A stretch of 64,000 nucleotides of DNA, taken from the NCBI GenBank assembly GCA_020631855.1, contig JACKGU010000001.1:295601-359600 (forward strand), written 5' to 3'. The translations under genes and the position numbers were made by a program. Origin of the DNA: Candidatus Nomurabacteria bacterium (GTDB taxonomy: Bacteria > Patescibacteriota > WWE3 > UBA101185 > UBA10185). This document shows positions 482 to 32,798 of this stretch, one piece after another; the first letter of the stretch is position 1, and each line of letters starts with the position of its first letter. Below the pieces are notes generated by a model. The model saw only the letters and a list, made by a program, of their open reading frames with translations. It ran no database searches and was not told the DNA's origin.

Positions 482-1314
482 TATTTACCCTTTCTCTTTC
501 TTGGTCGAGCTGTTACTACAAACTTATTAGTGTGTGTACGGCTACGTGTCTTAAACCCTCTTGTAGGTTTTCCCCAAGGAGTCTTTGGATGACCTGTACC
601 GTTATCTCTGTAAGAACCTGCATGTGGGTGGTCTTTTGGATTCGACATAGCGACACCTCGTACATGTGGTCTTCTACCCAAATGTCTCATTTTACCTGCT
701 TTTCCTAGTCTTGCAAGTCTATGGTCAGCATTCCCGAGGGTTCCTATTGTAGCATAGCATTTTGCAGCAACTTTTTTAACCTCTCCACTAGGGAGTTTAA
801 CGTTTACGAAATTTCCTTCTTTGGCCAAAACAACAGCGCTGTTACCTGCGCCCCTTACCATCTGTGCACCTTTTCCCGGGTTTAGCTCAATATTATGTAT
901 AGGCATACCTGCAGGAATGTTACTTAACGGTAAGCTATTTCCAACCTGAGCTTTTGCATCTTCCCCTACCTCAACGACCATCCCGACTTCTAAACCTTCG
1001 GGTGCCAAAATATAAGACTTCTCCCCATCTGCATAGTGTAAAAGGGCTAAATCGGGCCCTCGGTTCGGATCATATTCGATTGCGGCCACTTTTGCAGGAA
1101 TGCCGAATTTTATTCTTTTAAATTCTATTATTCTGTAATGCTTTTTTGCGCCTCTTTCTCTGAAGCGACTTGTAACAGTGCCTTTACTACGTCCAACATG
1201 GCCTTTTATTGATTTCGTTAATCTTTTTTCAGGCTTTGATTTAGTTATATTACTCTTTACGAGTGTTTTTCTTGTCCTAATTCCCGGACTTGTAGGCTTA
1301 TATTTTTTTAGCAT
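481..1314 (-). CDS. rplB: 50S ribosomal protein L2
   Basis: 277 aa; [19 protein letters not shown]... and basic C-terminus typical of L2. Confidence 0.95.
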
Positions 1315-1315
1315 T

Positions 1316-1609
1316 TTACTTCGTCTCCTCCGTCAGTTTTATCTTTTGCCCTTTTTTAATCTCGATTACCGCTTTCTTCCACTTTGGGGTTTTGGTAAAT
1401 CTTCTGGATTTCAGTATTCTTCTCTTTTTTCCGGGCATAATATATGTTTTTACATCCAAAACTTCAACACCAAACATTTTTGCCGCCACTTCAGCAATTG
1501 CACCTTTGGAGGCTTTCACACCCACTTCGAAAGTGTATTTGTTCTGCCCCTCGGCTTGTACAGACTTTTCGGTTATTATCGGTTTTTTAATTATTTCGTT
1601 TAACTTCAT
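1316..1609 (-). CDS. rplW: 50S ribosomal protein L23
   Basis: 97 aa, L23-like; operon position. Confidence 0.88.
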   Translation of the reverse strand: MKLNEIIKKPIITEKSVQAEGQNKYTFEVGVKASKGAIAEVAAKMFGVEVLDVKTYIMPGKKRRILKSRRFTKTPKWKKAVIEIKKGQKIKLTEETK

Positions 1610-2259
1610 TATTTAAATCTCCCTTTGTATTTTGTCTGTATTATATCAACGGCCTTTTTTGTAAAAATAACTTTGTGGGCATTCATAAGTTCATAAGCAT
1701 TAACATTTTGTACCAAAGCAGTATGAACCCAAGGAATATTGGCGACACTCTTTCTCACATTCATATCATTATCATCTAGTATTATTAAGGATCTTCTTGA
1801 GTCTAAACCGGCAGCCTTCATCATTGCTGCAAATTTAGAAGTACTTGGCTCTGCTGCCTTTAGCGTATCCACAACAAAAACGTTATCCTTAGACACCTTC
1901 AAAGATAGTGCGCTTAGAAGTGCTAAAGATTTCATCTTCTTTGTAAGTTTTAAGCTCCACGATTTTGGCTTAGGTCCGTGCACAATTCCACCTTTTCTCC
2001 ATAGAGGGCTTCTGATAGACCCGACTCTAGCGCGTCCCGTACCTTTTTGACGCCAAGGCTTTCGACCAGCCCCGGATACTTCAGCTCTGGTTTTAGTTGA
2101 TGAAGTTCCCTGTCGCATATTATGCAAAAAGACTCTTACATACTGTTTTAAAGTCTCTATACGAGGCTCAAGTTTAAACACAGAAGTATCAAGATCCATT
2201 TTCTCTAAAACTTCACCCTTTGTATTAATTACATTAATTTGCATTCTGTACCTCCTCAA
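1609..2259 (-). CDS. rplD: 50S ribosomal protein L4 (true start may be internal Met near 2244)
   Basis: 216 aa L4-like; operon order S10-L3-L4-L23-L2-S19-L22. Confidence 0.9.
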   Translation of the reverse strand: MRRYRMQINVINTKGEVLEKMDLDTSVFKLEPRIETLKQYVRVFLHNMRQGTSSTKTRAEVSGAGRKPWRQKGTGRARVGSIRSPLWRKGGIVHGPKPKSWSLKLTKKMKSLALLSALSLKVSKDNVFVVDTLKAAEPSTSKFAAMMKAAGLDSRRSLIILDDNDMNVRKSVANIPWVHTALVQNVNAYELMNAHKVIFTKKAVDIIQTKYKGRFK

Positions 2260-2671
2260 CGACTGTTCCTTGTTGCGGTAAATCTATGTAAATCGTTATA
2301 TCTGCGTTTCTCGCTCCCGGAACCGGGCCCGTTAAAGCTATGATTTTGGTTTCATTATTAATATCAACAATTCGCAGGCCTTTCAAAGTAACCTGCTTGT
2401 TGCCTTGGTTTCCGGCCATCTTCTTACCCTTAAAAACCTTGCTTGGTGTCTGAGCTCCAATAGAGCCGCCGGATCTTGCCTTGTCTGACTGACCTCGGGT
2501 AGCCTGGGCACCTTTAAAATTCCATTTTTTCATAACTCCTGTAAATCCTTTACCTTTGGAGATGCTGGAAATTACAACTTCATTATTTAAAACCGAGCTG
2601 TCTAAAGCAGACTCCAACGAAACATACGTAACGGGAATAACTTTACCTTCAGGTGTAAATACCTGACTCAT
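2234..2671 (-). CDS. rplC: 50S ribosomal protein L3 (short form, about 145 aa; ORF extends to 2719 but conserved N-terminus starts at MSQVFTPEG)
   Basis: FTPEGKVIPVT, KGKGFTGVMKKWNF, SKVFKGKKMAGNQGN match L3 motifs; middle segment (about 50 aa) present in E. coli L3 is absent. Confidence 0.85.
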   Translation of the reverse strand: MSQVFTPEGKVIPVTYVSLESALDSSVLNNEVVISSISKGKGFTGVMKKWNFKGAQATRGQSDKARSGGSIGAQTPSKVFKGKKMAGNQGNKQVTLKGLRIVDINNETKIIALTGPVPGARNADITIYIDLPQQGTVVEEVQNAN

Positions 2672-2831
2672 GTTAAGTTTCTTACCTTTTAATTTGTTCC
2701 AATTCTTATAGTCTTGCATTTTATCTCGCTAACTTCGCTTATTACTAAGCATTGGCTCTAAGCTCTATTTTAAACTTTTCAGTTTGTTTTTAGTAATAAA
2801 TGCCGAGCTAAAAGCATTTATATTATTTAAA

Positions 2832-2853
2832 TAAAAAAAGCCCTAAAGGGCTC
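2832..2853 (-). terminator. Rho-independent terminator on minus strand between rpsJ and rplC (stem AGCCCT/AGGGCT, loop TTA, then 7 U)
   Basis: Minus strand reads GAGCCCTTTAGGGCTTTTTTTATTT; canonical hairpin+U-tract. Confidence 0.5.
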
Positions 2854-2940
2854 CTAATACTTTATATTATTTGCCCTGTTATGTAAACCTTTTTATTAAA
2901 ATCAACATTTTTTATTTTGCGCAGTAGGCGCATTTGGCAG

Positions 2941-3264
2941 CTACATTTTAATAGAAATACCTACACCTGCCGGTAAGCTAAGGTTTGATAAGGTTTCTAT
3001 TGTTGCAGCTGTTGGATTGACTACATCCAACACTCTCTTGTGAGTTCTAAGTTCAAACTGCTCTCGAGACCTTTTATCTATGTGGGGGCCTCTTATTACA
3101 GTGTATCGTTCTGTTTTTGTTGGCAAAGGAACAGGTCCTACTATCGACGCTCCGGTTCGAACCGTTGCATCGGCAATTTTTTGGCAACTCAAATCAATGA
3201 TTCTGCTATCGTATGCCTTTAGTTTTATTCTAATTTTTATGTCTTTTTTTTCTGTTTTTGCCAT
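2941..3264 (-). CDS. rpsJ: 30S ribosomal protein S10
   Basis: 107 aa; [19 protein letters not shown]...[14 protein letters not shown] classic S10. Confidence 0.95.
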
Positions 3265-3274
3265 TTTTTCTGGG

Positions 3275-3299
3275 GAGGGGCGCCTGAATGGCGCCCCTC
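3275..3299 (-). promoter_or_regulatory. 10-bp all-GC perfect stem-loop (GAGGGGCGCC-UUCAG-GGCGCCCCUC on the mRNA (minus) strand) between tuf stop and rpsJ start, 10 nt upstream of rpsJ AUG; no U-tract
   Basis: Read directly; extremely GC-rich stem in AT-rich intergenic DNA; followed on the mRNA by CCCAGAAAAA-AUG. Confidence 0.5.
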
Positions 3300-3310
3300 A
3301 TTAAATAATC

Positions 3311-4489
3311 TTAAGCAAGCACCTTTGTAATAACTCCGGCTCCTACTGTGTGACCGCCTTCTCTAATTGCGAATTTTAGGCCTTCTTCTAATGCTACAGG
3401 TGTAATAAGCTTAACTTTTATGTTTGTGCTGTCACCCGGCATTATCATCTCAACACCTTCGGTTAAAGTGATTTCTCCGGTTACATCTGTTGTTCTAAGA
3501 TAAAATTGAGGCCTATATCCTGCAAAGAATGGCTTGTGTCTTCCGCCCTCTTCTTTTGACAGAACATATATTTCAGCTTCGAATTCGGTGTGAGGTGTAA
3601 CAGAACCTGCCTTGGCAAGTACTTGTCCTCTTTCTATATCTTCTCGACCAATACCTCTAAGAAGAATTCCGACGTTGTCTCCAGCCTGACCCTCCTGCAT
3701 TGATTTTTTGAACATTTCAACACCGGTTACTGTGGTCTTTCTAGTGTCTTTTATACCAACGATTTCGATTTCTTCTCCTACTTTAACGACACCTCTCTCG
3801 ATTCTTCCCGTTGAAACGGTACCTCTACCTGAAATAGAGAATACGTCTTCAACTGGCATCAAGAATGGCTTGTCAAGGTCTCTCTTAGGAGTTGGGATAT
3901 AACTGTCTACAGCGTCCATTAATTTAACAATTGACTCTGCGGCTTCAGCATCGCCTTCTAGAGCCTTTAATGCTGAACCTCTTATTACAGGGATCTCTTC
4001 TCCCGGGAAACCATACTTTGTTAGAAGCTCTCTAACTTCAAGTTCCACCAGATCTAAGAGCTCTGCGTCTTGAACCATGTCTGTTTTATTCATGAACACT
4101 ACTATTGCAGGAACGTTAACCTGTCTTGCAAGAAGTATGTGTTCTCTAGTTTGAGGCATCGGTCCATCAGGTGCAGAAACAACCAAAATAGCCCCGTCCA
4201 ACTGTGCAGCACCGGTAATCATGTTCTTGATGTAGTCGGCGTGACCCGGACAGTCAATATGAGCGTAGTGCCTTGCGGCGGTCTCGTACTCAACGTGGGT
4301 AATATTTATGGTAATACCTCTTGCTCTCTCTTCAGGAGCTTTGTCTATATCTTCAAATTTTTTAAAGTCTGCCATACCTTTGTCTGATAAGACTTTTGTA
4401 ATAGCAGCAGTAAGTGTTGTCTTTCCATGATCGACGTGACCGATGGTACCGACATTGGCATGTGGTTTATTTCTAATAAAATCTGCCAT
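3311..4489 (-). CDS. tuf: Elongation factor Tu
   Basis: 392 aa; [22 protein letters not shown] motifs. Confidence 0.97.
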
Positions 4490-15408: not shown

Positions 15409-16041
15409 TTACCGTCCTTCCAAAATTACGTTCTTAAGTTGTTCCGGAGTATCAACAAGAAACTTGGGTGATTTTTTTGCTAAAGTTGCTGAGTCATTAA
15501 AGCCCCAAGTCACCGAGGCAATATCAATTCCTGCTTTTTCGCAAGCTACGATATCCCTAATCTCATCGCCAACATAGAGCGTTTCCTTTTTTCGTAAGTG
15601 CTTTTTTCGAAGCATTTTTTTTATTAATCTATGCTTTTTAAACAATTTACGCCCTGAATAAATGTCTAAAATGCCTGATATTTTGTGCATTTTAAGATAT
15701 GCCGTAACTATTCTCCTGTCATTGCTTGTAAGAATGTAAATTTTATAGCCATGCGACTGCAGCCCTGAAATTATCTCTGCCATTCCTTCAATGAGGGCTA
15801 AGTCGGAAAGATTATTTCGCATCTCTTCGCGAAGCATTTTTACAAAACGAGGTATTTTAAAAACATTTATATTAAATTCGCGGAAGATGTATCGCATAGA
15901 CAAACTCCTCAACTTAGGAATTTCGTTAGCATCAATACCGTCTATACCGTATTTTGAGGGATTAGAATTTACTACCTTTAATAAAAAGTTAAATGAATCG
16001 GCTATAGTACCGTCAAAATCAAAGATTATGTTTTTATACAC
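15409..16041 (-). CDS. HAD-superfamily hydrolase (phosphatase)
   Basis: IIFDFDGTIADS motif I, later DD motif. Confidence 0.7.
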   Translation of the reverse strand: MYKNIIFDFDGTIADSFNFLLKVVNSNPSKYGIDGIDANEIPKLRSLSMRYIFREFNINVFKIPRFVKMLREEMRNNLSDLALIEGMAEIISGLQSHGYKIYILTSNDRRIVTAYLKMHKISGILDIYSGRKLFKKHRLIKKMLRKKHLRKKETLYVGDEIRDIVACEKAGIDIASVTWGFNDSATLAKKSPKFLVDTPEQLKNVILEGR

Positions 16042-16078
16042 TTTAAAAATTCTCCAATAATATCATCAAAACTACCAA

Positions 16079-16195
16079 TCACCGCCAGCTTACGCAGGTG
16101 TTTTGCTGTAATTTCTTTTTGTTGCAAAGCCCAACATGCTGGGTAAGCTACCTCTACTAGCTTACGCAAGCAGCTATAAGTAACAAAATTATAAA
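16079..16195. repeat. Copy A of about 117-nt structured intergenic repeat family (copies at 30262-30380 and 32799-32919)
   Basis: About 85% identity by eye to the two other copies, same orientation; between secA stop and HAD gene start. Confidence 0.85.
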
Positions 16196-16196
16196 A

Positions 16197-18755
16197 TTAA
16201 GCGTCTTTGCCGTGGCATTTCTTGTATTTTTTACCGCTCCCGCAAGGACAAGGATCATTTCTACCAATCTTATCTACAGATTTAGTAGTTGGGGCTTTTG
16301 TACTTTTATTTTTTAACTTTGCTTCGTCTTCGACACCGCTATTTAGCTCTCCCTGCTCATAAACGGCCGACTGCAACTCACTCTTTAGTTTGCTTTCTAA
16401 TCTATTTTCTACGCTACGAACTTGCTCAGGAGCTCTTTTTATTTCTTTTAACCTCAGCAGTCTCTCGCTAATACCCGAGTATATACTATCAACCAGCATA
16501 TCAAATCTGGTGTGACCTTCTCGTTTATATTCAACAATAGGATCTTTTTGCGCGTAACCTCTGAGCCCAATTCCATCTCGTAAGTTGTCCATATCTACCA
16601 AATGCTCCATCCATAGCATATCAACAACTTCCACACTCAGCTGTGCAACAACCTGGGCCCATATTTCTTCACCTAGCTCTTTGCTATAATAATCCCAACG
16701 CTCCGAAACCTCAGAAGAAAGTTTTTCCAAAAACCAATCTTTGTGTGTCAAATCTTTGGACCCAATTTCAAGAATTCTACGCCTCAGTTTATACACTACT
16801 TCCCTATGCACATTCATAACATCGTCCATTTCAACGACCTGTTTTCGTCTGTCGAAGTTAAAGTTTTCAACTTTCTTTTGCGCGTTTTCGATAGCCTTAG
16901 ACACTATACCGGCTTCTAAAGGAACCGAATCATCTATGCCAAAGCGGTTCATCAACCTTTCTACCTGGGCGCCTCCGAAAACGCGCATCAGGTCATCCTG
17001 CAACGAAACATAAAACCTCGAAGAGCCGGGGTCGCCCTGTCGACCGGAGCGACCTCTCAACTGATTATCAATTCTTCTAGACTCATGTCTTTCGGTTCCA
17101 ATAACATGCAGGCCTCCAAGCTCCCTGATTTCAGCTTGTTCTTCTTCAGTCGACGGATCTCCACCTAATATAATGTCCACACCTCGGCCCGCCATATTAG
17201 TTGAAATAGTTACAGCACCTTTTTTACCCGCTTGAGCAACAATTAATGCCTCACGTTCGTGATTCTTTGCGTTTAATATCTCGTGTGGAATTTTTCTTCG
17301 TTGTAAGAAATTATGTAGAAGTTCGCTTTTTTCAACCGTTGTTGTACCAACAAGAACCGGCTGACCTTTTTCATGTAGTTTTGCTATTTCATCGGCCACG
17401 GCCTTAAATTTTCCTGCCTCTGTTTTGTACACCACATCGTTATAGTCAATTCTAGCTACAGGCATGTGGGTAGGAATTACAACTACTTCAAGTTTATAGA
17501 TTTTAAACAACTCCTCGGCCTCAGTCACCGCAGTACCGGTCATGCCGGCCAGCTTTGAATACATTCTAAAATAATTTTGATAAGAAATCTCAGCTACTGT
17601 TTTGCTTTCTTGCTGTATTTGAACATTTTCTTTAGCTTCAATTGCCTGATGCAATCCTTGAGAGAATCTATTCGAGGGCAAAAGTCTGCCGGTAAATTGA
17701 TCTACAATTACAACCTGGCCGTCTTTCACAACATAATCTCTGTCTTTCTCATACAAGGCGTGTGCGCTCAAAGACTGCTCTATCAAATGAACCATCTCGA
17801 AATCTTGTTCATAAAGATTATCTATTTTTAGTAAATTCTCAACTCTCCTTATACCAAAATCTGTTAGCGAGGCGTTTCTAAATTTTTCTTCTACTTCATA
17901 GTCAGTATTTTTTTCTAGCTGATCTATAATTCTGTTCGCCTGCATGTAACGTTCAGTGGGTTGAGCTGAAGAAGTGGAAATTATTAAAGGCGTTCTAGCT
18001 ACATCAATTAAAATTGAATCTACTTCATCAACAATAGCAAAATTATGGCTCCCCCAATCACCGTTTGGATTGGTCTGTACGGTTTGATCAAGTGTAAGTA
18101 CCATGTTATCTCTTAAGTAATCGAAGCCGAATTCGTGGTTAGTACCATAAGTTATATCTGCACGGTAGGCATCAGCCTTGCTGATCTCGCGCAGATGCTT
18201 TGTATACTCATCTTGAAACTCGGAACTAACAAACTCAGGATCGAAAATAAACGCTCGTTGCTGCATAATTACACCCGTCTTCAGTCCAAGATAATCGTAC
18301 ACTCCGCCCATCCATCCGGCCCCGTGTTTTGAAAGATAATCGTTAGGCGTTACGAGATGAGCACCCTTACCTGTTAGTGCATTAAGATACAAGGGTAAAA
18401 CGGCCGTAAGAGTCTTACCTTCGCCGGTCTTCTGTTCCGCTACCTTGCCTTGGTGCAAAGCAATGCCGGCCAACATTTGCACATCATGAATTCTGATTGT
18501 CTTATTCTCATCGCTCAAAACCCTTCTTGCCGCCTCTCTTACTAATGCGAAAGCTTCCGGCAAAATTGAATCCATATACCTTGAGGCTTCCTTGTCATCC
18601 ATTTTGGATAGAGCCTCTTTCCAAAAAGCCGTCTTTTGTAAAAAAGCAGGTCGGTCTAACCTCTCGAATTCAGGTTCAAAAGAACTGATCTTACTCAGTA
18701 TGGGGGCTTGCTTGGCAAGCAATTTTGAATTTGTATCGAAAAATTTTTTAAACAT
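16197..18755 (-). CDS. secA: Preprotein translocase ATPase SecA
   Basis: 852 aa; DEAD-like motor motifs; C-terminal zinc-finger [14 protein letters not shown]. Confidence 0.97.
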
Positions 18756-22578: not shown

Positions 22579-24696
22579 CTATTTGGCTTGATTTTTGTAA
22601 ACATTGATCAAAAACTCTACATGTGCATCAAAACCCTCACCTAGTTGTTCAACACCATATAAAATCTCTTCACGATCAATTTTAGCCGCAAAAGCCCTAT
22701 CTTTAAATTTCTTCTTTACTGACGATACTTTCATGCCGTCGTAACCTTCGGGGCGCATCAATGCGTACGCATATAGAAATCCGGCCATCTCATCCACGGC
22801 AATAAGCGCAGAGGCCAGCCTGGTCTGAGGTTTTACATTGGTTCTCATGTGAGCATGAGCTGCAACTGCATGAATTAAACTCTCAGGATAGTTTCTCTCT
22901 TTAAACCATTCTAATGATTTTGCAGGATGCTCATCAGGGTATTCAAAATAATCAAGGTCATGTAATAAACCTGTGATATACCAGAGTTCGCGATCTTCAT
23001 TGAATTTTTCAGCATATGCTTCAAGACCGCGGGCGATCATAAGAGCATGCTGTATTTGATAGCTGTCCTTGACATGGTCCCGTAAAAGCGCCTCCGCCTC
23101 CTTTCTAGAAGGTAGAAATCCCTCGGAGCTAATGTATAAACTCTCGTTTAAATCAGTTTTACTTAGAGAGTCTTCTACTAGAGGATCGCTCTTGGATAAC
23201 CCGTAGATTTCAGCGTTTGCATCGTCGTAAACATGCTTCAATTGAGGAAATGGAACTCCTTCCCTTGCTGTAACATCCTCTAAAAACCAAAAAACTCTTT
23301 CTGAATGACCATAACCAAATGTCGGCGGCATGCCGTATTCAAGCATTTCAACATAATCAATATCGAGCCACTGCGCTTCCGAATCACCGGAATCTCTCAT
23401 TGACTGCTGTTCCGAAAATCGTTCAAACTGATCCAAGCCACTATTTATTTCCGACCAGCCATTTCCGAGTTCGGAGCCGGCAATAATTGGCTGGAAACGC
23501 TCTGTTATTCTGGTATCTTTTGGGTTCGCCTTTGCTAACGGCGACAAATACTTAGGGTGATTAATTAAAAAGGCAGGCCCCCCAATAGTTCTACGTATTT
23601 CTTTCCAAAGAGCGTCCACTAATCGTGGCCGATTCTCTGTCTCTGCCTTTATTCCGGCTTTTTCGCAAGCTAGCTTTAAATCTTCAATACTTGAATTGTG
23701 TACGTCTACTCCATATCTCTGCTTCATGATGTCAGAGAAATCAATCCTTTCCCACTCTTTTTTGGAGAAATCAACTTCAAAACCCCTAATACTGAACTTC
23801 TTCTTATCTCCGTAAAGAGATTCAATCACGTAATTAAAAAGGTCTTGAATAAAATCCATACCTGATTGCCAATCAGCGTAAGCCCAATAAACCTCCATCG
23901 CCATGTGTTCGGGAAGATGCTCGTCGGATAAACCCTCATTTCTGAATCTTGGGCCTATTTCATAAACTTTTTCATAGCCCCCTCCAATTAATCTTTTCAA
24001 AAAAAGTTCATGGGAAATTCTAAGATAAAGAGTCTCATCGATGGAGTCCATATGAGTCACAAAAGGATTCGCGTCTGCCCCTCCGGGCACTGCTTCTAAA
24101 ACAGGAATATTAATCTCATAGAAACCCCTTTTTTCAAAAAACTCGCGATGAGCAGCCCAAAACTTAGAACGTCTAATGTATCTATCACGAACATCATCAT
24201 TTATCCTTGTATCTAGATATCTTTTACGCATTCTGGTCTCTCTGTCTTTAAGCCCATCGTGCTTGTCGGGCAATGGTCTAAGGGATTTGGCCAATATTCT
24301 TATGCTGTGGGGCTCTATAGACTGCTCGCCGCTATTTGTTATTACTAAAGCTCCCTTGCACTCTATATAATCTCCAATATCTAATAAATCCAGCTCAGAG
24401 TAGGATATTTCACTATTTTTGTGTTCAACTTTTTCAAGATTTTGTTCCTTAATATATACCTGAATTGTGCCTGAAAAATCTTTTATATCAAAAAATGTCA
24501 GCTTTCCATGTCTTCTCAACGACATGATCCAACCGGCTAAAATTACTTCCTTTCCCCCAAGTTTGCCAAAGCTGCTTATAACTTCAGAGATTAGGTGGGT
24601 CCTAAAAGACGTTGCCGGATAAGGATCAACGCCTAGATCTTGAAGATTTTTAAGTTTTTGTAATCTTACATCCCTTAGCTCTTTTAAAGTGGCCAT
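22579..24696 (-). CDS. lysS: Lysyl-tRNA synthetase (class II) fused to a C-terminal HD-domain (YqeK-like) phosphohydrolase, about 705 aa from MATLKEL
   Basis: Core LysRS (FRNEGLSDEHLPEHMAMEVYWAYADW; ...PPTFGYGHSERVFWFL...VPFPQLKH) ends about residue 510; extra about 215 aa has H...HD...H..H..D pattern (IQHALMIARG...GLLHDLDY...AVAAHAH...AVDEMAGF). Confidence 0.9.
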   Translation of the reverse strand: MATLKELRDVRLQKLKNLQDLGVDPYPATSFRTHLISEVISSFGKLGGKEVILAGWIMSLRRHGKLTFFDIKDFSGTIQVYIKEQNLEKVEHKNSEISYSELDLLDIGDYIECKGALVITNSGEQSIEPHSIRILAKSLRPLPDKHDGLKDRETRMRKRYLDTRINDDVRDRYIRRSKFWAAHREFFEKRGFYEINIPVLEAVPGGADANPFVTHMDSIDETLYLRISHELFLKRLIGGGYEKVYEIGPRFRNEGLSDEHLPEHMAMEVYWAYADWQSGMDFIQDLFNYVIESLYGDKKKFSIRGFEVDFSKKEWERIDFSDIMKQRYGVDVHNSSIEDLKLACEKAGIKAETENRPRLVDALWKEIRRTIGGPAFLINHPKYLSPLAKANPKDTRITERFQPIIAGSELGNGWSEINSGLDQFERFSEQQSMRDSGDSEAQWLDIDYVEMLEYGMPPTFGYGHSERVFWFLEDVTAREGVPFPQLKHVYDDANAEIYGLSKSDPLVEDSLSKTDLNESLYISSEGFLPSRKEAEALLRDHVKDSYQIQHALMIARGLEAYAEKFNEDRELWYITGLLHDLDYFEYPDEHPAKSLEWFKERNYPESLIHAVAAHAHMRTNVKPQTRLASALIAVDEMAGFLYAYALMRPEGYDGMKVSSVKKKFKDRAFAAKIDREEILYGVEQLGEGFDAHVEFLINVYKNQAK

Positions 24697-24907
24697 TATT
24701 TTATTTCCTAAACTGAATACGTACTTCGCAATTATAACAGAAAAGGGGCAGGTACAAAGCACCCAAAAATAGTGCTAAAACATTTTTACGGCCTAAATTT
24801 TTTTATTTGCTTTTATATTGCTAACCCGAACAAAATTCTTTTAGTACATGGCCTAACCTGCTTATACTAGCCACAAACAACAAAGAACTGTAAAATATCT
24901 GCAGAGT

Positions 24908-25873
24908 ATGAAAAAAATAACTGAAGCTACGATCGCTCAAGGCACTAGGGTTTTTGTGAGTACAGATATAGATGTACCTATAGATAATGGGCATATTAGA
25001 AATACTTTTAGACTCGACCGTGGCTTAGAAACTCTTAAGTACATAGTAGATAAAGGAGCAATCCCAGTAATTGGGGGCCATATAAAAAATCCTCAAGGAA
25101 AATACGATCCCCAGCTTAGTACAGCACCTCTTAAAAAGTATTATAATGAAAAATTAGGGGAGGGTTCTTACGAACTATTAGAAAATCTGCGTTTTGACAT
25201 TAGAGAAGATCAGAATGAGGATACCTACGCACAGGAACTGGCAAATAAAACAGAGGTCTTTGTAAACGAGAATTTTGCAACCTCACATCGAACAAATGCT
25301 TCTTTAGTTGCTATTACTAAATACTTACCTTCATTCGCGGGACTTAATTTGAGCAGAGAAATCGAAGCTTTGGATAAAATACTTATCGACTACAAAAAGC
25401 CTTTTACTGCAGTTATTGGCGGAGCGAAAGTTGAAAGCAAGGCACCTGTTATTGATTCGCTTTGCAACATAGCTGACAATATCCTGCTTGGTGGGAAAAT
25501 AGGCTTAAACTATTCTACGGATAATGCTAGGGTGAGCTCTCCGGCCGACTACGCAGACGGTAATCAAGATATCGGCCCGAAAACAATCCTAAACTATACA
25601 GGATACATACTGTCAGCCCAAACACTTTTATGGGCCGGGCCTATGGGAGCTTATGAAAAAGACGAATTCTGTATTGGTACAAATCTAATCGCAGATGCGA
25701 TAGTGGAAGCAACAAAAGGCGGCGCTTATAGCATAATAGGAGGCGGAGATACGATTACAGCTTATAGCAAGAACCACGCATTGGGAGAAGTAAGTTTTGT
25801 TTCAACAGGAGGAGGGGCCATGCTGACATATCTGGCGCATAAGAATATGCCCGGCATTGAGGCTTTAGGATAA
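24908..25873 (+). CDS. pgk: Phosphoglycerate kinase (short, 321 aa)
   Basis: LENLRF, NENFATSHRTNASL, GGGAMLTYL motifs. Confidence 0.88.
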   Translation: MKKITEATIAQGTRVFVSTDIDVPIDNGHIRNTFRLDRGLETLKYIVDKGAIPVIGGHIKNPQGKYDPQLSTAPLKKYYNEKLGEGSYELLENLRFDIREDQNEDTYAQELANKTEVFVNENFATSHRTNASLVAITKYLPSFAGLNLSREIEALDKILIDYKKPFTAVIGGAKVESKAPVIDSLCNIADNILLGGKIGLNYSTDNARVSSPADYADGNQDIGPKTILNYTGYILSAQTLLWAGPMGAYEKDEFCIGTNLIADAIVEATKGGAYSIIGGGDTITAYSKNHALGEVSFVSTGGGAMLTYLAHKNMPGIEALG

Positions 25874-25876
25874 ATT

Positions 25877-26179
25877 ATGGCAAAAAGTTTAAAAGTTCAG
25901 TTTCCGGAACGTTGCATAGGCTGCGAACTGTGCATCATGGAAATACAAAGACAGCTTAAAAAACACGGCCTCGAAGGTTCTCTGATTAGAGTTTTTAAAA
26001 GTGCCAAAGAAGGAAAAGAAATATGCGAGACTCTGGAATACTCAATAGATCTAGACCCGAGCATAAATTCATACGACATTGAACAAATTAGGAAAATTTG
26101 CCCAAAAAGTGTTTTTGTTGTGGCCGACATGACAGAAGAAGAGAACTACGAAGACGCTCTGCTGGAACAGAAAGATTAA
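25877..26179 (+). CDS. Small ferredoxin-like protein (CxxCxxC ... CP)
   Basis: ERCIGCELC then distal ICPKS; 100 aa; tightly packed between pgk and AOR-like gene. Confidence 0.5.
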   Translation: MAKSLKVQFPERCIGCELCIMEIQRQLKKHGLEGSLIRVFKSAKEGKEICETLEYSIDLDPSINSYDIEQIRKICPKSVFVVADMTEEENYEDALLEQKD

Positions 26180-26181
26180 AT

Positions 26182-27015
26182 ATGCATAAATCAGTCTTAT
26201 TTGTTAATTTAAAAAATAAAACATACGAGGTTAAAAAATTTGACGAACTCGCAAAATACATAGGAGGAGTTGCTGTTGGATTTAAACTTCTTCTTGATAA
26301 TATAGAGCACGATCCAATTATATTTTCTATCGGACCTTTGAACGGCGTGTTTCCTTTCGCATCAAAAACTTCTATCGTTCTGCATAACAATGGCGTAGTC
26401 GAAGACTTATATATCGGGGGTTCCCTAAGCTCCAGAATGGCCTTTTCCGGGGTTGACTCCATAGTATTTATAGAATCCGCAGAAGAGCCCACATACGTTG
26501 AAATAACGAATGAGGAAGTGTTCTTTAAACCAATAACAACTGATATAGATTCTTTAGGATTACCGGGGAAAAGATCAGTTTTAAAACCAATTAAAAATAA
26601 ATACTTTTTAGATGATTATTTTTTAACTCCGGAGTTATTTTTTGAAGAAAAGCTTGCAAAGAAAAATGTAGGAGGAATAGTGTTAACAGGAACAAAAACA
26701 CGTGAAATAAAAAATCCTGAAAAATATAAGGAACTTTTACACGAAATATTAGGTAAAAAGTCTTTAATGGAAATAGATGAGGGAGATAGCCCCTCTTGCA
26801 CATTTTGTCCAATGGGGTGCTCAAAGTCTCGTACCGGAGAAATTGGAGGAAACATATTGGTACACAGCATGGTGGGATGCAAGCTTAGCCAAAAAATATA
26901 CAGCGACGTGGGAACAATTTTTTCTTGCTTGAGTGTGTTGGGCTATTCCTACACACACGAAGATATTGAAGACCTGCCTCTTCTGGTAAAAGAGGTACTG
27001 GAAAAATTAAATTAA
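26182..27015 (+). CDS. Aldehyde:ferredoxin oxidoreductase (AOR)-family protein, truncated: N-terminal domain + [4Fe-4S] CxxCxxxC motif only (about 277 aa)
   Basis: MHKSVLFVNLKNKTYEVKKFDELAKYIGGVAVGFKLLL...IFSIGPLNG...ASKTSIV...FSGVDSIVFIESAEEPTYVEI aligns with P. furiosus AOR N-domain; CTFCPMGC matches AOR cluster motif CxxCPxGC; ends at tpiA start. Confidence 0.65.
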   Translation: MHKSVLFVNLKNKTYEVKKFDELAKYIGGVAVGFKLLLDNIEHDPIIFSIGPLNGVFPFASKTSIVLHNNGVVEDLYIGGSLSSRMAFSGVDSIVFIESAEEPTYVEITNEEVFFKPITTDIDSLGLPGKRSVLKPIKNKYFLDDYFLTPELFFEEKLAKKNVGGIVLTGTKTREIKNPEKYKELLHEILGKKSLMEIDEGDSPSCTFCPMGCSKSRTGEIGGNILVHSMVGCKLSQKIYSDVGTIFSCLSVLGYSYTHEDIEDLPLLVKEVLEKLN

Positions 27016-27671
27016 TGAAATATTTAGTAGCAAACTGGAAATCTAATATGACAGTCTCCGAGGTTATTGTCTGGCTAAAAGCTTGGGATAAACTAATAAA
27101 AAGCGCAGAGAGTAATGATGCGGTAAGAGTTTTAGTAGCCCCTTGTTTTATACATCTTCCATTATTTACCGGTCTGGAAAATATTTATTCTTGCGGGCAG
27201 GATGTCTCGGAGAACAGCGTAGGGCCTTATACCGGATACGTGAATGCTACACAGCTAAGGGAATTCGCTGATTACAGCATAGTCGGGCACAGCGAAAGAA
27301 ATGAAGACTCTGAAACAGTTGTCAAAAAGATTAATCAGTGTAGAAATAACGGAATTGAGGCCATTGCTTGTTTCACTCACACTGAAAATGCAACAGAGTA
27401 TTCAAAATTCACAAAGATCTTAGCTTGGGAGGACCCTGAAAATATATCAAAACAAGGAAAGTATGCAGAATTAAGGTATGGTGAAATAAATCACTCTATT
27501 GAAAAAATTTACTCTAATATTGAACCCGATACTGTGTTATTATACGGAGGCTCTGTTAACTCGAATAATATTAGCGAATTAACTAGAATTAAGAGTATAT
27601 CGGGGTTTTTAGTAGGAAACGCAAGTCTGGACGTGGCTCACTTTTATAAGCTATACTGCTCCATGATCTAG
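27015..27671 (+). CDS. tpiA: Triosephosphate isomerase
   Basis: VANWKSN, IVGHSERN motifs; 218 aa. Confidence 0.9.
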   Translation: MKYLVANWKSNMTVSEVIVWLKAWDKLIKSAESNDAVRVLVAPCFIHLPLFTGLENIYSCGQDVSENSVGPYTGYVNATQLREFADYSIVGHSERNEDSETVVKKINQCRNNGIEAIACFTHTENATEYSKFTKILAWEDPENISKQGKYAELRYGEINHSIEKIYSNIEPDTVLLYGGSVNSNNISELTRIKSISGFLVGNASLDVAHFYKLYCSMI

Positions 27672-27750
27672 TACAATAAAGTGTAAGAAGTTAAAATTAA
27701 CTTTCTAAAGAAGTCTTTTTAATAGTAGAGAGCTAAGAGAAAAATTTAAA

Positions 27751-28815
27751 ATGAAATACATTGATGCGCATAAAAAAATAAATACAATTACTAAACCTGT
27801 AGCTAAAAAAAACTCAAAAGGAAGCTTCAAGGGTATTGCTACACTGGCACTTATACTTCTAATCTTCGTTGCCGTCGGGGGAACAGTTTTACTTTTTAAA
27901 AGCAAGCTGAACCCCGTTTCAATTGTTGCAAGCGCAACAAAGGCAAATATCAAAGAAACTGACGGGAGAACAAACATTCTAGTTCTCGGAAGCGACAAGA
28001 GAGATAACGGCAATGCTGTCACGTCAGTATTGACCGACACCATACTGCTAGTCTCAATAGGAAGGGTCGAGCACGACGTACTACTACTTTCCATGCCCAG
28101 AGATCTGTATGTTGAAAATTCAAAGGGATACAGTACAAAAATTAACGCTGTGTATACTTTAGAGGGGCCGGAGGAACTCCAGTCTGTAGTTGAAGACGTT
28201 CTTGGTGTTCCAATTCATTACTATGCCGTAGTTGACTTTAATTTGTTTGTAAATGCCATAAACGTACTTGGCGGCATTGATGTTAATGTTCAAAATGCGT
28301 TCACAGACTACCAGTATCCTATTGAGGGTAAGGAGAACGCGCCTATTGAGGAAAGATACGAAACAATATCTTTTGCGGCCGGAAAACAACACATGGACGG
28401 AGAGACAGCATTGAAATTCGCGAGATCAAGAAAAGGCGACAATAACGAAGGTACTGATTTCGCAAGAGCAGCAAGACAACAGTTGGTGATTGAGGCAATT
28501 AAGGAAAAGGCCCTATCCTTAAAAACAGTTACAAACGCTTCAAAGATTAAAGAGTTATACGACCTATACGCAGAAGGAATAGATACAAACCTGGGGTTTG
28601 CTGACGTCCAGGGCTTCTACCTATTGTCACAACAAATCAACTTTGACAGCATCAGATCTATTGTTCTCGACGACAGGAGCGAGGCAGATAAAGGTGGTCT
28701 ACTTTATGCTCCAATCGATACGGCCCTTTACGGCAATCAATATGTTCTCATTCCGCAGTCCGGAGACTATAGCCAAATACATGCATATGTTCAAAGATAT
28801 CTCTTTGGAGAATAA
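27751..28815 (+). CDS. LytR-CpsA-Psr (LCP) family cell-wall polymer transferase
   Basis: N-terminal TM; LVLGSDKRD...TDTILLVSI; GETALKFARSRKGDN...ARQQLVIEAIKEK typical LCP. Confidence 0.85.
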   Translation: MKYIDAHKKINTITKPVAKKNSKGSFKGIATLALILLIFVAVGGTVLLFKSKLNPVSIVASATKANIKETDGRTNILVLGSDKRDNGNAVTSVLTDTILLVSIGRVEHDVLLLSMPRDLYVENSKGYSTKINAVYTLEGPEELQSVVEDVLGVPIHYYAVVDFNLFVNAINVLGGIDVNVQNAFTDYQYPIEGKENAPIEERYETISFAAGKQHMDGETALKFARSRKGDNNEGTDFARAARQQLVIEAIKEKALSLKTVTNASKIKELYDLYAEGIDTNLGFADVQGFYLLSQQINFDSIRSIVLDDRSEADKGGLLYAPIDTALYGNQYVLIPQSGDYSQIHAYVQRYLFGE

Positions 28816-28817
28816 AA

Positions 28818-29456
28818 ATGATCGTTTTAGTTCACGGTAATAACTCTGTAAACAAAGCCGATGTAGTTTTTAAACTTAGTGAAAAAATCTCAACCCCAAG
28901 AAAATATCTTTCAATTGACGAGAATTCACCAACAGATGTTCTAACTGCAACAGCGACTAATAATATGTTTACCGGTGCACCAATTGTAATTCTGGATCTG
29001 GGTTCAAATACAAAAAGCGATGCAAAGAGTTTCCTAGATATTTTCCCGCGAGTACCTGCAAAAAGTTTGCTAATTTTATTGGCACAAAAAGAACTTCCTA
29101 AGTCAAATCAATTCCTTCAGCACGCACAGCAACAAGGCTATAAAATAATACTTAGCAACACTACTCCCACAGCAAACATTTTTTCTTTTGTCAGCTCCCT
29201 ATACTCAAAAAATAGAAAGAAAACATATAGAGAATACGAGACTTTAATAGCAGAAGGTGCTGATCCTTTTTACATTCTTTCTATGGTAATGTTCGGCGCG
29301 AGAAAGCAAGCAAAAGCTGTGAATGGGGATAAAATAGATGAAAAAACACTATCTTTATATAAATATATCTTCGAGACCGACCTAAAAACAAAAACCGGCA
29401 AAATTCCTGTTGACGTTGCTCTTCCTTTGATCATAGAAAAAGTGCTAACATCTTAG
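28818..29456 (+). CDS. Hypothetical; possible short DNA polymerase III delta subunit (HolA-like)
   Basis: MIVLVHGNNSVNKADVV ... MFTGAPIVILDL resembles HolA N-terminal pattern (YLLYGED...LF..rlvvv); weak. Confidence 0.3.
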   Translation: MIVLVHGNNSVNKADVVFKLSEKISTPRKYLSIDENSPTDVLTATATNNMFTGAPIVILDLGSNTKSDAKSFLDIFPRVPAKSLLILLAQKELPKSNQFLQHAQQQGYKIILSNTTPTANIFSFVSSLYSKNRKKTYREYETLIAEGADPFYILSMVMFGARKQAKAVNGDKIDEKTLSLYKYIFETDLKTKTGKIPVDVALPLIIEKVLTS

Positions 29457-29459
29457 TGC

Positions 29460-30215
29460 ATGGGAAAATTTAAAAAGAAGGTTTACCACAAAAAATATAC
29501 TAATGATCAGATCTATAACAACGTAAATCTGGGATTTACCTTAAAAAGCTCTGCGGTCCCACTTGTACTTACAGTTACGGCATGCGCCATATTTGCAACC
29601 CAAGTACTTTACCCGCTTATAAATTTTACGACCCAAGATCTTACGTCCGTCGCCGCTCAACACACAGCTTTAGCAAAAATATCAGGTTTTCGCGAGTTTC
29701 AATACTCAGAGTTACAAAGAAATGTACTAGGCTCAACAAATAATAGCGAACAGGTACAGGAGAAGTTTTATATTTCGATTCCAAAACTTAATATTGAAAA
29801 CGCTGAGGTAGAGACAAACTCTTCGAACCTAAATCCTGAAACCGCTCTTGGCCATTATCTGGGCTCAGCCTTACCGGGGCAAAATGGCACAGCGTTTGTG
29901 TACGGACACTCTGTGCTGCCTTTCTTTTACAACCCAAAAAACTATAAAACTATATTTTCAACCCTGGGAGATCTAGAAAAAGGAGATTTGATATATGTCA
30001 TATACGGCAATAGATCTTATACATACGAGGTAGAAGGGCAGAGAGAGCTTAAACCGGAAGAGGTTAATCCTATTGAGAACATAAAACCTGAATATCTACG
30101 AAAATCGTCCTTAGTTCTTATGACCTGCTCACCGCCGGGAACAAAGCTTAAAAGGCTACTTATAGACTCTGTTCTAATAAACACATCGATAATACAACAG
30201 AATTCAATAGAATAG
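29460..30215 (+). CDS. Sortase family transpeptidase
   Basis: N-terminal TM anchor; VYGHSV (His), LVLMTCSPPGT (TLxTC Cys motif). Confidence 0.78.
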   Translation: MGKFKKKVYHKKYTNDQIYNNVNLGFTLKSSAVPLVLTVTACAIFATQVLYPLINFTTQDLTSVAAQHTALAKISGFREFQYSELQRNVLGSTNNSEQVQEKFYISIPKLNIENAEVETNSSNLNPETALGHYLGSALPGQNGTAFVYGHSVLPFFYNPKNYKTIFSTLGDLEKGDLIYVIYGNRSYTYEVEGQRELKPEEVNPIENIKPEYLRKSSLVLMTCSPPGTKLKRLLIDSVLINTSIIQQNSIE

Positions 30216-30261
30216 TGTTATTTACTGACAATAGCAGATTTAATGAGCCAGGTCTTAAAAT

Positions 30262-30380
30262 CATCCGCCACCAGCTTACGCGGGTGGTTTGCTGTAATTT
30301 CTTTGCGTTGCAAACCCAACATGTTGGGTAAACTATACCTACTAGCTTAAGCAAGTAGTTTTAAGTAATGAGATTATAAA
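30262..30380. repeat. Copy B of about 117-nt structured intergenic repeat
   Basis: Aligned by eye to copies A and C (about 85-87% identity). Confidence 0.85.
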
Positions 30381-30392
30381 CAAGAATACAGA

Positions 30393-30413
30393 AATACGCC
30401 TCATGGGCGTATT
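30393..30413 (-). terminator. Candidate terminator for minus-strand gene 30460-31074 (AATACGCC-tcatg-GGCGTATT then U-rich)
   Basis: 8-bp stem read directly; followed on minus strand by TCTGTATTCTTGTTTATAAT. Confidence 0.35.
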
Positions 30414-30459
30414 CCTAAAATGTTCTATAATTATAGTGCTCTGGGCTCAACGCAGATAC

Positions 30460-31074
30460 CTAATCTCTTAGAATCTTCTTTTCAAATCTAGTTTTAATAT
30501 AGCTCTTTGGGTTCATGAAGAAGTTGTAAAAGACAAACGTAAACAATGTTAACGAAATTAGCAAACCCAAAGTTACGCTAGTAGAGCCAGTTACAGGAAC
30601 TGGTGCGGTAGTTTGAGTTGTTTGAATTACTCCCCCGCCACCTCCTGCTGCAGCAGCTAAGACTGCAGGTGTATTTACTCCTCCTACCGACTCGGAATCA
30701 CCAGCACCGGTTACTAAAGATGCAAAAACACTTGGCTCTTCCATTGCCCCATCGGTTGCCTGAGTCACGGAAGTTGTTGTAGGTTCAGCAGAACCTGTTT
30801 CTTTTATTGAATAAATTCCCATAACGGCCTCATTGTCGCCTGGAGTCTTTTTCTGAGCATTTTTAGAGGAAATTGAAGAATCGGAAATTGAAACCGAATC
30901 AACGGAAGTCTCAGAAACCATAAAATACAGCGCACTGAAAACCAAAACTGATATCGAAAAAGTTATTATAAATGTTTTTAAGCCATTCTTAGCTTGACTG
31001 TTAGTATTCATAGGCAGGAATCCTAATACTATCAATATACTGAATGTCGAGATCTCCCTTAAACGGCACAGCAT
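30460..31074 (-). CDS. Ser/Thr/Gly-rich secreted surface protein with C-terminal VPVTG + hydrophobic segment + basic tail (candidate sortase substrate); start possibly at internal Met (about 31011)
   Basis: N-terminal signal/TM; low-complexity S/T/G/A region; C-terminus ...APVPVTGSTSVTLGLLISLTLFTFVFYNFFMNPKSYIKTRFEKKILRD. Confidence 0.5.
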   Translation of the reverse strand: MLCRLREISTFSILIVLGFLPMNTNSQAKNGLKTFIITFSISVLVFSALYFMVSETSVDSVSISDSSISSKNAQKKTPGDNEAVMGIYSIKETGSAEPTTTSVTQATDGAMEEPSVFASLVTGAGDSESVGGVNTPAVLAAAAGGGGGVIQTTQTTAPVPVTGSTSVTLGLLISLTLFTFVFYNFFMNPKSYIKTRFEKKILRD

Positions 31075-31246
31075 TTATTCTAGCTTGTTCCGAAATTTCA
31101 AAGGATCTTGAGATCTCTTCTCTTCCTTTTGAAAGTACTATAAAAAGTATAAAGATACTTGAGCAAAAAATCAACAAGAACCATTTCATATTATTATTTT
31201 ATATCTTTCTACAAACAAATACTTCATAAAAATGCAAAGCTTAGTA

Positions 31247-31828
31247 TCAATTAATATAGTAAATAGCAAATGTAACTATAAGAGTATCCTTTCCGGAATT
31301 GGGATTGGAATCTACATCCGCCCGTGCACTAACCACTGCGTATACTCTTTTTGAGACACTCAGGTCCTGCAGAAATTTAGGCAAAGCAGAAATATCTCCT
31401 GTTAACTTAGCAGAATAGAGCTCAGAGTATTCAACATAATCCGACTTCGTCACACTGGAATCATTGGAGGATGTCCCCTTGACTTCATCAAGCGACAGTC
31501 CGTTAATCCTTGCTATCTGTGATAGTTCAAAAATCATACCATCGTAGTCCTTTTCAACGGGAACTCCATTCATAATAATTTCAGTTTTTAAATTTCTTAC
31601 TAAATAAGGCTCGAGCAGAGCTACACGATTTATATTGTTTTTTATAATAGTTCCTTGCTCCGAAAACTCTTTAACGAGATCTTTCTTATATTTATAGGCG
31701 GAATAACCCCTAACGGCACCGAAATATCCCACAACAACTACATTAAAAGCTAAAAAGCACAGAAACAAAACAAAATTTCTGTAAGGTCGGCTTTGTATTT
31801 CTCGATCATAATAATTATTCAACTTCAT
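31247..31828 (-). CDS. Bitopic membrane protein (PilO-like or FtsB/FtsL-like)
   Basis: Short cytoplasmic N-term, single TM (FVLFLCFLAFNVVVVGYFGAV), predicted coiled-coil/periplasmic domain; no specific motif. Confidence 0.3.
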   Translation of the reverse strand: MKLNNYYDREIQSRPYRNFVLFLCFLAFNVVVVGYFGAVRGYSAYKYKKDLVKEFSEQGTIIKNNINRVALLEPYLVRNLKTEIIMNGVPVEKDYDGMIFELSQIARINGLSLDEVKGTSSNDSSVTKSDYVEYSELYSAKLTGDISALPKFLQDLSVSKRVYAVVSARADVDSNPNSGKDTLIVTFAIYYIN

Positions 31829-32466
31829 TTGTATGTAACCTCTATCGAAATATCATACGAGCCCCCGCGATTTAAGCCTGCGTACAATAAACTGATTGAT
31901 TCTATATCTTTGTTTGAAAAAAGATTAGACATATAGATAGAAGCGTTTATCGGCTCGGAAACAACAATGTTTAGGTTTGCTTTATCAGTATCAAATGACG
32001 TGCTAGAGTAAAAACCCTTCGGCACATCCGTATTCATTACTTCTGCGTGTCTGCTGATCAGACTTCTTTTTGACTCTATAGATTTGTAAGTAGCTATACG
32101 ATCATTTACTTTAGTAACATCGGCAATAATATCTTTTCTGCTGCTGAAAGTATCTGACAAGTCTTCGACTTCTATTACAAGCTGCTCAAGCTGTCGGTTA
32201 ACTGAAAAGTTAAGCAGAAGGATAATCAAATATATTACCTGAATAAAAATGATTAAATAAACTATTATCCTCGGGGTAGAGTCGGGAATACTAATACTTT
32301 TTTCTTGAAATAAGTTTGGGGTATAAATAGGCTCAGTTGCCTCTAGCGGCTCATTTAGTGGCTGGTTTAGTCTTTGCTTTAGATTTTGAAGCTTTTTCTT
32401 TGCTGGCAGTAGAAACTTTAGTTTCTTTTTCAGCTGTATTTTTTTCTTTTTCTGGACCTTGGGCAT
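31825..32466 (-). CDS. Bitopic membrane protein (PilN-like); annotated Lys-rich N-terminus overlaps rpsT 3' end and is probably not real
   Basis: TM (IIVYLIIFIQVIYLIILLLNF) followed by coiled-coil-like region; ATGA overlap with downstream gene. Confidence 0.3.
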   Translation of the reverse strand: MPKVQKKKKIQLKKKLKFLLPAKKKLQNLKQRLNQPLNEPLEATEPIYTPNLFQEKSISIPDSTPRIIVYLIIFIQVIYLIILLLNFSVNRQLEQLVIEVEDLSDTFSSRKDIIADVTKVNDRIATYKSIESKRSLISRHAEVMNTDVPKGFYSSTSFDTDKANLNIVVSEPINASIYMSNLFSNKDIESISLLYAGLNRGGSYDISIEVTYK

Positions 32467-32728
32467 TGGCAGATACTTTCTTTGAAATCTTTGATTTTAT
32501 TCTGGCAGCCTTGTTCTTATGAATAACGTTATTTTTTGCAGCTTTATCTACTACTTTATACAATACTCTTTCCTGCTCTTTGATTATATCAAGTTCTTTT
32601 GTATTTGTAGAAAGCAATTTTTCTATTGCCTTCACAGAAGCCTTAATCTTGGTTTTCCAGAATATGTTATGAAGTCTTTTCTTCGCAGAAGATCTGACGG
32701 CTTTTTTTGCTGACTGTGTATTTGCCAT
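32351..32728 (-). CDS. rpsT: 30S ribosomal protein S20 with Lys-rich C-terminal extension
   Basis: MANTQSAKKAVRSSAKKRLHN...GLIHKNKAARIKSKISKK = S20; extra about 40 aa K/E/A-rich tail. Confidence 0.85.
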   Translation of the reverse strand: MANTQSAKKAVRSSAKKRLHNIFWKTKIKASVKAIEKLLSTNTKELDIIKEQERVLYKVVDKAAKNNVIHKNKAARIKSKISKKVSANAQGPEKEKNTAEKETKVSTASKEKASKSKAKTKPATK

Positions 32729-32798
32729 ACTGCGGTAGTATGATAACACAGTAGCACAATTTGACAATACTTTGTTATACTAGGACCCCATAACTGAT

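Follow-up and report, generated by a model that had tools for sequence, protein, structure and literature searches.

ERIC/IRU, BOX, RUP, Correia/NEMIS and the Rickettsia RPEs are interspersed repeats of 100–150 nt. RUP and Correia elements are bounded by terminal inverted repeats and flanked by target duplications, and RPEs are inserted in frame within genes. REPs are single palindromes of only ~20–40 nt with a conserved 5′ tetranucleotide, which usually occur as inverted pairs and reach hundreds of copies. PATEs of Haloquadratum, which are also short and non-coding, are mobilised in trans.

How single-strand transposition recognises its ends has been described for IS608 of Helicobacter pylori, the reference IS200/IS605 element. 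On the left, cleavage takes place 3′ of a TTAC in the flank, which precedes the left hairpin by 19 nt; on the right, it takes place 3′ of TCAA, the last bases of the element, which follow the right hairpin at 10 nt (PMC3201880, PMC5934647). The guides AAAG and GAAT, located just 5′ of the hairpin feet, read these cleavage motifs: motif base -3 pairs with guide base 1, -4 with base 2 and -1 with base 4 (PMC3201880, PMC5934647). The third guide base is an A that enters the protein, the A at -2 is bonded to T-4, and base triplets are completed by the two bases next to each hairpin on its 3′ side (PMC3201880, PMC5934647). The end spacing is reported to be flexible (PMC10055086). In Geobacillus stearothermophilus, ISGst2 has an experimentally defined transposon-adjacent motif (TAM), TTTAT, and an RE motif, TTCAC, that differs from the TAM at positions 3 and 5; gene-less PATE-like copies of ISGst2 are mobilised in trans (PMC10055086). 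During IS200/IS605 insertion, the active strand lies in the lagging-strand template (PMC5027513).

Here, we describe a 117-nt intergenic repeat of a Patescibacteria (CPR) bacterium, a host whose SecA protein is listed by NCBI under 'Candidatus Nomurabacteria bacterium' and for which the closest other SecA proteins are only 69% identical. Judged from the sequences of its copies, the repeat probably represents a new, lineage-restricted and largely fossil family of IS200/IS605-type non-autonomous (PATE-like) elements.

Three copies of the repeat in the window

The window, i.e., the whole 64-kb stretch of DNA that we analysed, had been described in the initial annotation as carrying three repeats in one orientation. 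Alignment and repeat finding recovered all three, with refined limits, and the contexts proposed for them (secA/HAD, convergent sortase/hypothetical gene and divergent rpsT/murJ) match the gene annotation. The copies and their neighbours are:

15409-16041, minus strand: HAD hydrolase gene, downstream neighbour of copy A
16074-16190 (refined; plus-strand limits), top strand is the window minus strand: copy A, 117-nt element, by alignment and profile search
16197-18755, minus strand: secA, upstream neighbour of copy A
29460-30215, plus strand: sortase gene, flanks copy B
30260-30375, minus strand: copy B, 116 nt owing to a single-base deletion, in the spacer between the convergent sortase and hypothetical genes
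30460-31074, minus strand: hypothetical gene, flanks copy B, convergent with the sortase gene
32797-32913, minus strand: copy C, in the spacer of divergent rpsT and murJ

Copy A lies 6 nt 3′ of the secA stop codon, and leaves undamaged the GGAG and GTG start of the HAD gene, which follow ~30 nt further. Copy C, the copy nearest to the family consensus, is found upstream of a good rpsT promoter-like site at 32767-32740. All three insertion sites appear harmless, and present effects of the copies, if any, would be incidental to their position (past terminators or stop codons, or upstream of the rpsT promoter). The identity of ~85–87% claimed for the three copies holds for A–C (85%) and B–C (87%) but not for A–B, which reaches only 81%. 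No fourth copy was detected by an nhmmer profile search of the 64-kb window and 10 kb beyond each end. Between copy B and the convergent hypothetical gene, we also noted a strong terminator-like hairpin at 30389-30417, with 12 pairs and the core AATACGCC...GGCGTATT.

Are these repeats genuine? Copies A and B each recur unchanged, at the corresponding loci, in assemblies of many samples held by ENA, NCBI (GCA_020427845.1), JGI and Logan, and so are not an assembly artefact. Many short-read contigs of the host species terminate within the repeat, as expected of multicopy DNA. Contigs L012, L005-L007, L037, L038, L042 and L044 end in the repeat or switch to another copy of it (chimeric joins). 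The element fragments short-read assemblies of the host MAG and explains the contig breaks observed there.

Elsewhere in the window, the gene at 22579-24762 (minus strand) encodes an aspartyl-tRNA synthetase-like protein of 727 aa with an extra HD-domain match, an unusual fusion. Between pgk and tpiA, in a glycolytic cluster, 26098-27015 (plus strand) encodes a 305-aa protein with only the N-terminal domain of aldehyde:ferredoxin oxidoreductase. The large, scarcely annotated genes at 55476-63364 (plus strand) may form a DNA-translocation or pilus-related module; among their products are an 802-aa DUF87/HerA-TraG-like ATPase, an FtsA/PilM-like protein and two hypothetical proteins (625 and 509 aa). 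No tRNA genes and no Rfam families at gathering threshold were found in these 64 kb of otherwise dense housekeeping genes.

Further copies in the host species

We recovered 12 additional copies or part-copies from other contigs of the same species, which brings the total to 15 when the chimeric contig L012 is counted. When metagenomes were scanned with a 23-mer of the element, copies turned up on four contigs of assembly ERZ795048, whose RuvX and sortase proteins match those of the window exactly and show that it contains the host species. Gene callers occasionally annotate a spurious open frame on the element; used as a second query, this frame yielded six more copies on two JGI contigs of the host species. 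This frame of ~35 codons is found on the top strand of several copies and is disrupted by indels in three; we thus rejected a coding reading and treated the element as non-coding.

Three head-to-tail pairs were found, the second unit being truncated in one of them, and one part-copy retains the left half only. All copies are intergenic, and insertions in frame within genes, which an RPE-like reading would call for, are absent. Their sites include the spacer between gyrB and holB, positions just 3′ of tRNA-Val, of polA and of an ABC transporter gene, and one beside the tmRNA. On contig L015 (453-1648), smpB and the tmRNA (tag peptide AEDNSIAYAGVGAYAPAMALV) are followed by a copy that keeps the left end, the left hairpin and the central palindrome, with an unrelated and longer right half. 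On another contig of the same species, L022, a Mrr-type restriction enzyme gene adjoins a large serine recombinase gene whose 3′ end overlaps a tRNA-Lys call (1019-3528); this region is probably an integrated mobile element.

Outside the host species, the 23-mer scan of the GTDB species genomes gave two chance matches only, both inside coding sequence; that genome set lacks the host species or, at any rate, its repeat. Nothing similar was found in viral contigs scanned with two patterns, or by BLAST against phages and plasmids. The relative at 69% SecA identity has a different gene order and lacks the element.

Asymmetric ends next to a conserved flank

Read on the window minus strand, the consensus of the family is as follows (slashes, element ends; parentheses, hairpins):

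TTTAT / AATTTCGTTACTT AAAA (CTACT T GC GTAA GC T AGTAG) ATGTAGTTT (GCCCAA CATG TTGGGC) (TTTGC AAC GCAAA) GAAATTACAG CAAA (CCACC T GC GTAA GC T GGTGG) TGG TTGAT /

The two outer hairpins are subterminal and imperfect. As paralogous direct sub-repeats, they agree at ~21 of 29 positions and have a common loop and T.T mismatch, with stems set apart by two fully compensated pairs (U-A to C-G). Just 5′ of the hairpins stand two 4-nt sequences, AAAA on the left and CAAA on the right, which we refer to as guides. The proposed left cut lies 17 nt from its hairpin, and the right hairpin lies 8 nt from the element end. In the window copies, these features are:

16082-16101, minus strand: copy A right hairpin, ACACC-TGCGTAAGCT-GGCGG, followed by the tail TGATTGGT
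16102-16105, minus strand: copy A right guide CAAA, preceding the right hairpin
16154-16173, minus strand: copy A left hairpin, CTGCT-TGCGTAAGCT-AGTAG
16191-16195, minus strand: TTTAT by the left end of copy A, proposed target or transposon-adjacent motif
30268-30287, minus strand: copy B right hairpin, CCACC-CGCGTAAGCT-GGTGG, with guide CAAA at 30288-30291 and tail CGGATGAT
30339-30358, minus strand: copy B left hairpin, CTACT-TGCTTAAGCT-AGTAG, with guide AAAA at 30359-30362
30376-30380, minus strand: TTTAT by the left end of copy B, part of the T-tract that follows the terminator-like hairpin 30389-30417
32797-32801, minus strand: copy C terminal TTGAT, proposed right cleavage or transposon-encoded motif (TEM)
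32805-32824, minus strand: copy C right hairpin, TCACC-T-GC-GTCA-GC-T-GGTGG
32825-32828, minus strand: copy C right guide CAAA, directly 5′ of the right hairpin foot (IS608 rule)
32839-32851, minus strand: copy C small local hairpin TTTAC-AGC-GCAAA, alternative to hairpin 2 of the initial annotation
32852-32867, minus strand: copy C central palindrome GCCCAACATGTTGGGC, hairpin 3 of the initial annotation
32877-32896, minus strand: copy C left hairpin, CTACT-T-GC-GTAA-GC-T-AGTAA, imperfect palindrome with T.T mismatch
32897-32900, minus strand: copy C left guide AAAA, directly 5′ of the left hairpin foot (IS608 rule, PMC3201880)
32914-32918, minus strand: TATAT by the left end of copy C, single-base variant of TTTAT

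End alignments revealed no terminal inverted repeats: the left end AATTTCGTTACTT is unrelated to the reverse complement of the right end ATCAACCACCACC, and the same is true when the first 25 nt are compared with the reverse complement of the last 25 nt. Nor did the copies carry target-site duplications, as the flanks of 13 sites contain no copy-specific direct repeat.

The left flank is conserved. Over 13 independent sites, its five bases are T (13 sites), T (12), T (13), A (12) and T (12), with TTTAT exact at 10/13, and information content is ~0.25 bit at -6 versus 1.35–1.74 bit at -5 to -1. All ten positions past the other end are unconserved at the 13 sites. TTTAT could simply belong to the element. 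The last five bases of the element are TTGAT; TTTAT and TTGAT differ consistently at the third base and therefore do not constitute a target duplication. In all three head-to-tail pairs, the junction is exactly TTGAT/AATTTCG. An attC-like reading was rejected, the RYYYAAC/GTTRRRY cores being absent.

Guides and motifs follow the IS608 rule

When the IS608 rule is applied to the left end, TTAT and AAAA form three T:A pairs, and both guide position 3 and motif position -2 are occupied by A. At the right end, TGAT and CAAA form a G:C pair followed by two T:A pairs, and the same two positions are again A. The T of the left motif and the G of the right motif are thus mirrored by A versus C in the guides, and mirrored again, as T versus G, by the second base 3′ of the hairpins, i.e., the triplet position. 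Because the complementarity of AAAA and TTAT comes cheaply in AT-rich DNA, the discriminating signal of this match amounts to about one G:C pair and one triplet base.

Membership in IS200/IS605 would rest on six end features, each of which we looked for and found in the sequence. Several observations favour this assignment: (i) a TTTAT flank faces a TTGAT terminus with neither inverted repeats nor a duplication; (ii) the tandem junction is the sequence that a circle junction would have; and (iii) the flank logo is sharp-edged while the opposite flank is unconserved. Since its ends show a single-strand IS200/IS605 architecture, the repeat is most likely a mini-transposon and not an RNA gene.

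How would such an element move? From its ends, we infer a transposase, an act of transposition and the strand used. A Y1 HUH transposase (TnpA), provided in trans, would have bound both subterminal hairpins on single-stranded DNA. Pairing of the flanking TTAT with guide AAAA would have located the left cleavage site, and pairing of the terminal TGAT with guide CAAA the right one. The top strand would have been excised as a circle with the junction TTGAT/AATTTCG, and this circle pasted 3′ of another TTTAT, preferentially on the lagging-strand template and with no target duplication.

The orientation of the copies bears on the last step. Of 12 positions, 10 have the top strand on the strand that is locally richer in G (sign test ~0.04), four of the values being near zero. 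Copies A and B lie on the left side of the cumulative GC-skew minimum, for which the lagging-strand template would be the minus strand. This lagging-strand bias is a trend, not a proof; its weakness at four positions and the two loci at which copies and genes are not co-oriented (L045 pair, L046c) count against the IS200/IS605 reading.

Neither Y1_Tnp (TnpA) nor TnpB (OrfB) was detected in the window or in ~80 kb of other loci of the species when gene tables were inspected and Pfam models were run on 40 window proteins and 18 from the other loci; the ~145 kb surveyed represent at most a quarter of a genome of at least 630 kb. No full-length parent element is known for the 117-nt family. The motifs provide a search handle for the Y1 transposase/TnpB system of this lineage, with TTTAT as target, TTGAT as end and AAAA and CAAA as guides. 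We found no empty site or presence-absence polymorphism among the assemblies, all of which are essentially one strain, with no relative between 100% and 69% SecA identity; every assembly with the flanking genes carries the copies.

A repeat retained by the host?

A different origin would be a REP/BIME-like or other host-retained repeat, spread by a RAYT-type enzyme or by recombination and kept for a role in transcripts, for example as a 3′ stabiliser or an insulator. The exclusively intergenic location of the copies, often just 3′ of a gene or tRNA (secA stop, tRNA-Val, polA, ABC transporter gene), would suit such a role; the hairpins are similar to those that Y1 enzymes bind, copy number is moderate, and short-read contigs break in the repeat. 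However, a 117-nt unit with two direct hairpins is not a 20–40-nt palindrome in inverted pairs, and the tandem copies run head-to-tail, their units lacking inverted pairing. The orientation to flanking genes is also variable: co-orientation holds at four tandem-gene sites and fails at two, the L045 pair and L046c being antisense, which argues against a sense-strand RNA function as well. Moreover, no RAYT gene was seen, and structural constraint is gone after dispersal, as detailed below. We consider retention of this kind unlikely.

Structure without covariation

What, then, is the status of the hairpins? The consensus is much more stably folded than its shuffles: for DNA, z is -4.15 when the minus strand is folded and -3.49 for the plus strand, and for RNA z is ~ -2.9 with either strand. 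Individual copies fold more weakly than the consensus (z = -1.6 to -2.7, and +0.4 for one copy). Four consecutive hairpins had been proposed. Hairpins 1, 3 and 4 hold in the consensus, whereas hairpin 2, which has a 17-nt loop, is rivalled by a tighter CTTTGC-AAC-GCAAAG that the folding program favours. The loop AGCTTACGCA, described as common to hairpins 1 and 4, is indeed shared in the consensus but shows single substitutions in individual copies.

The initial annotation had further reported covariation in the stems and deduced from it selection on RNA or DNA structure. Neither point survived the larger alignments. Double-sided changes were found in 0 of 223 cells with nine copies and in 1 of 348 with 14 copies, and the covariation score was below that of almost every shuffle. 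The closing pair of hairpin 3, thought to be compensatory, is G-C in 7 and unpaired in 6 of the 14 copies. Instead, substitutions break the stems randomly, and ~17% of all cells are non-Watson-Crick. With 15 G.T against 11 A.C mismatches, the two kinds occur equally often; neither strand is therefore protected, and this test of wobble asymmetry does not discriminate which strand folds. In the absence of covariation and with random stem decay, the structure is a property of the ancestral sequence that has decayed neutrally since dispersal. The lack of covariation and the equal mismatches fit a structure needed only for movement, and thus the IS200/IS605 reading, which is also favoured by a consensus more structured than the individual copies.

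These data bear directly on a lineage-specific small RNA or cis-regulatory RNA family whose functional product would be the four hairpins. Such a family might account for an RNA consensus that beats its shuffles on both strands and for the identical loop on two hairpins. Yet covariation is absent among 14 copies, stem mismatches accumulate with wobble pairs showing no strand preference, and single copies fold, at best, within the modest range given above. No Rfam family matches the repeat: the whole window was searched at gathering threshold, and copies A and C and the L045 tandem pair at E up to 10, with chance-level matches only. In addition, the copies are without a promoter or terminator of their own, and tandem pairs and a truncated unit occur. 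A functional RNA family is thus very improbable, and the false lead of a new RNA family with a structure kept by selection is removed.

A more speculative thought, to which we give little weight, is that top-strand transcripts serve as omega-RNA-like scaffolds, with a guide just past TTGAT, for a TnpB/IscB-type nuclease encoded elsewhere in the reduced CPR genome, or that copies have been domesticated as single-strand DNA/RNA signals near the strand-switch region of the window.

That region spans 24000-36000 and combines the cumulative GC-skew minimum with a switch in gene strand, genes lying mostly on the minus strand left of ~24.8 kb and on the plus strand right of ~32.9 kb. This suggests a replication origin-like switch in the window. 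A dnaA gene is absent there and DnaA boxes are not enriched. All three window copies lie within 17 kb of the skew minimum, and the consensus contains palindromes (CACC-N10-GGTG, CTACT-N10-AGTAG and CCCAACATGTTGGG) that could form a double-stranded array of binding sites for a dimeric protein, maybe tied to this origin-like region. Besides the lack of DnaA box enrichment, the copies on unrelated contigs beside unrelated genes speak against such an array, as do half-sites that decay independently and a conserved loop and asymmetric ends that are not expected of a binding site; its chances seem slim. Finally, a classical MITE from a DDE-transposase insertion sequence would also be small, non-coding, intergenic and multicopy, but the terminal inverted repeats that define it and the target-site duplication are both absent, and the end sequences, which already contradict it, leave it next to no credibility.

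Four candidates had been put forward at the outset. Those that invoke a mobile element are supported, more specifically as IS200/IS605, while the small RNA, with no Rfam match, promoter or terminator, is not.

A probable old burst of dispersal

When did the copies disperse? Identity between loci is 69–88%, with a mean of 81% over all pairs and a star-like pattern around copy C. The units of the two complete tandem pairs, on the other hand, are 93% and 99% identical. Low identity between loci and high identity within pairs imply that dispersal is old and only local duplication recent. Together with random stem decay, the identity range suggests that the family is probably an old burst that is now largely inert. 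As IS200/IS605-type elements, the copies would record relics of single-strand (peel-and-paste type) transposons in a streamlined CPR genome.

Comparison with known systems

The repeat resembles ERIC/IRU, BOX, RUP, Correia/NEMIS and RPE in size, intergenic location, predicted structure and lineage restriction. To our knowledge, none of these families shows its TAM-TEM-guide arrangement. REP/BIME sequences with RAYT (TnpA-REP) share with it intergenic hairpins, often just downstream of genes, and probably handling by a Y1 HUH enzyme on single-stranded DNA. The repeat differs from REPs in its 117-nt unit, its two direct hairpins and its defined asymmetric ends.

Compared with ISGst2 and PATEs, the repeat belongs to another phylum (Patescibacteria), shows no detected sequence similarity and has no TnpB/omega-RNA partner known here. 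Its copies at different loci are also old, 69–88% identical with no near-identical pairs, unlike those of ISGst2 and PATE-like elements. The ISGst2 TAM, TTTAT, is nevertheless identical to the left motif of the repeat, and in both cases TAM and TEM disagree at one or two positions.

With IS608, the differences lie in the motifs (TTTAT/TTGAT in the repeat versus TTAC/TCAA), in hairpin sequences that are unrelated, in a unit of 117 nt without tnpA or tnpB, and in spacings of 17/8 nt versus 19/10 nt, i.e., 2 nt shorter with the same long-left/short-right asymmetry. The architecture is the same: (i) there are no inverted repeats and no target duplication, and the subterminal imperfect palindromes lie on the same strand; (ii) the left end is flanked by a target motif and the right end closes with a similar one; (iii) guides pair with motifs by one and the same rule of positions, in which guide position 3 is a flipped A and motif position -2 is also A; and (iv) the second base 3′ of the hairpins is T and G, respectively, with AT following the left hairpin in both elements.
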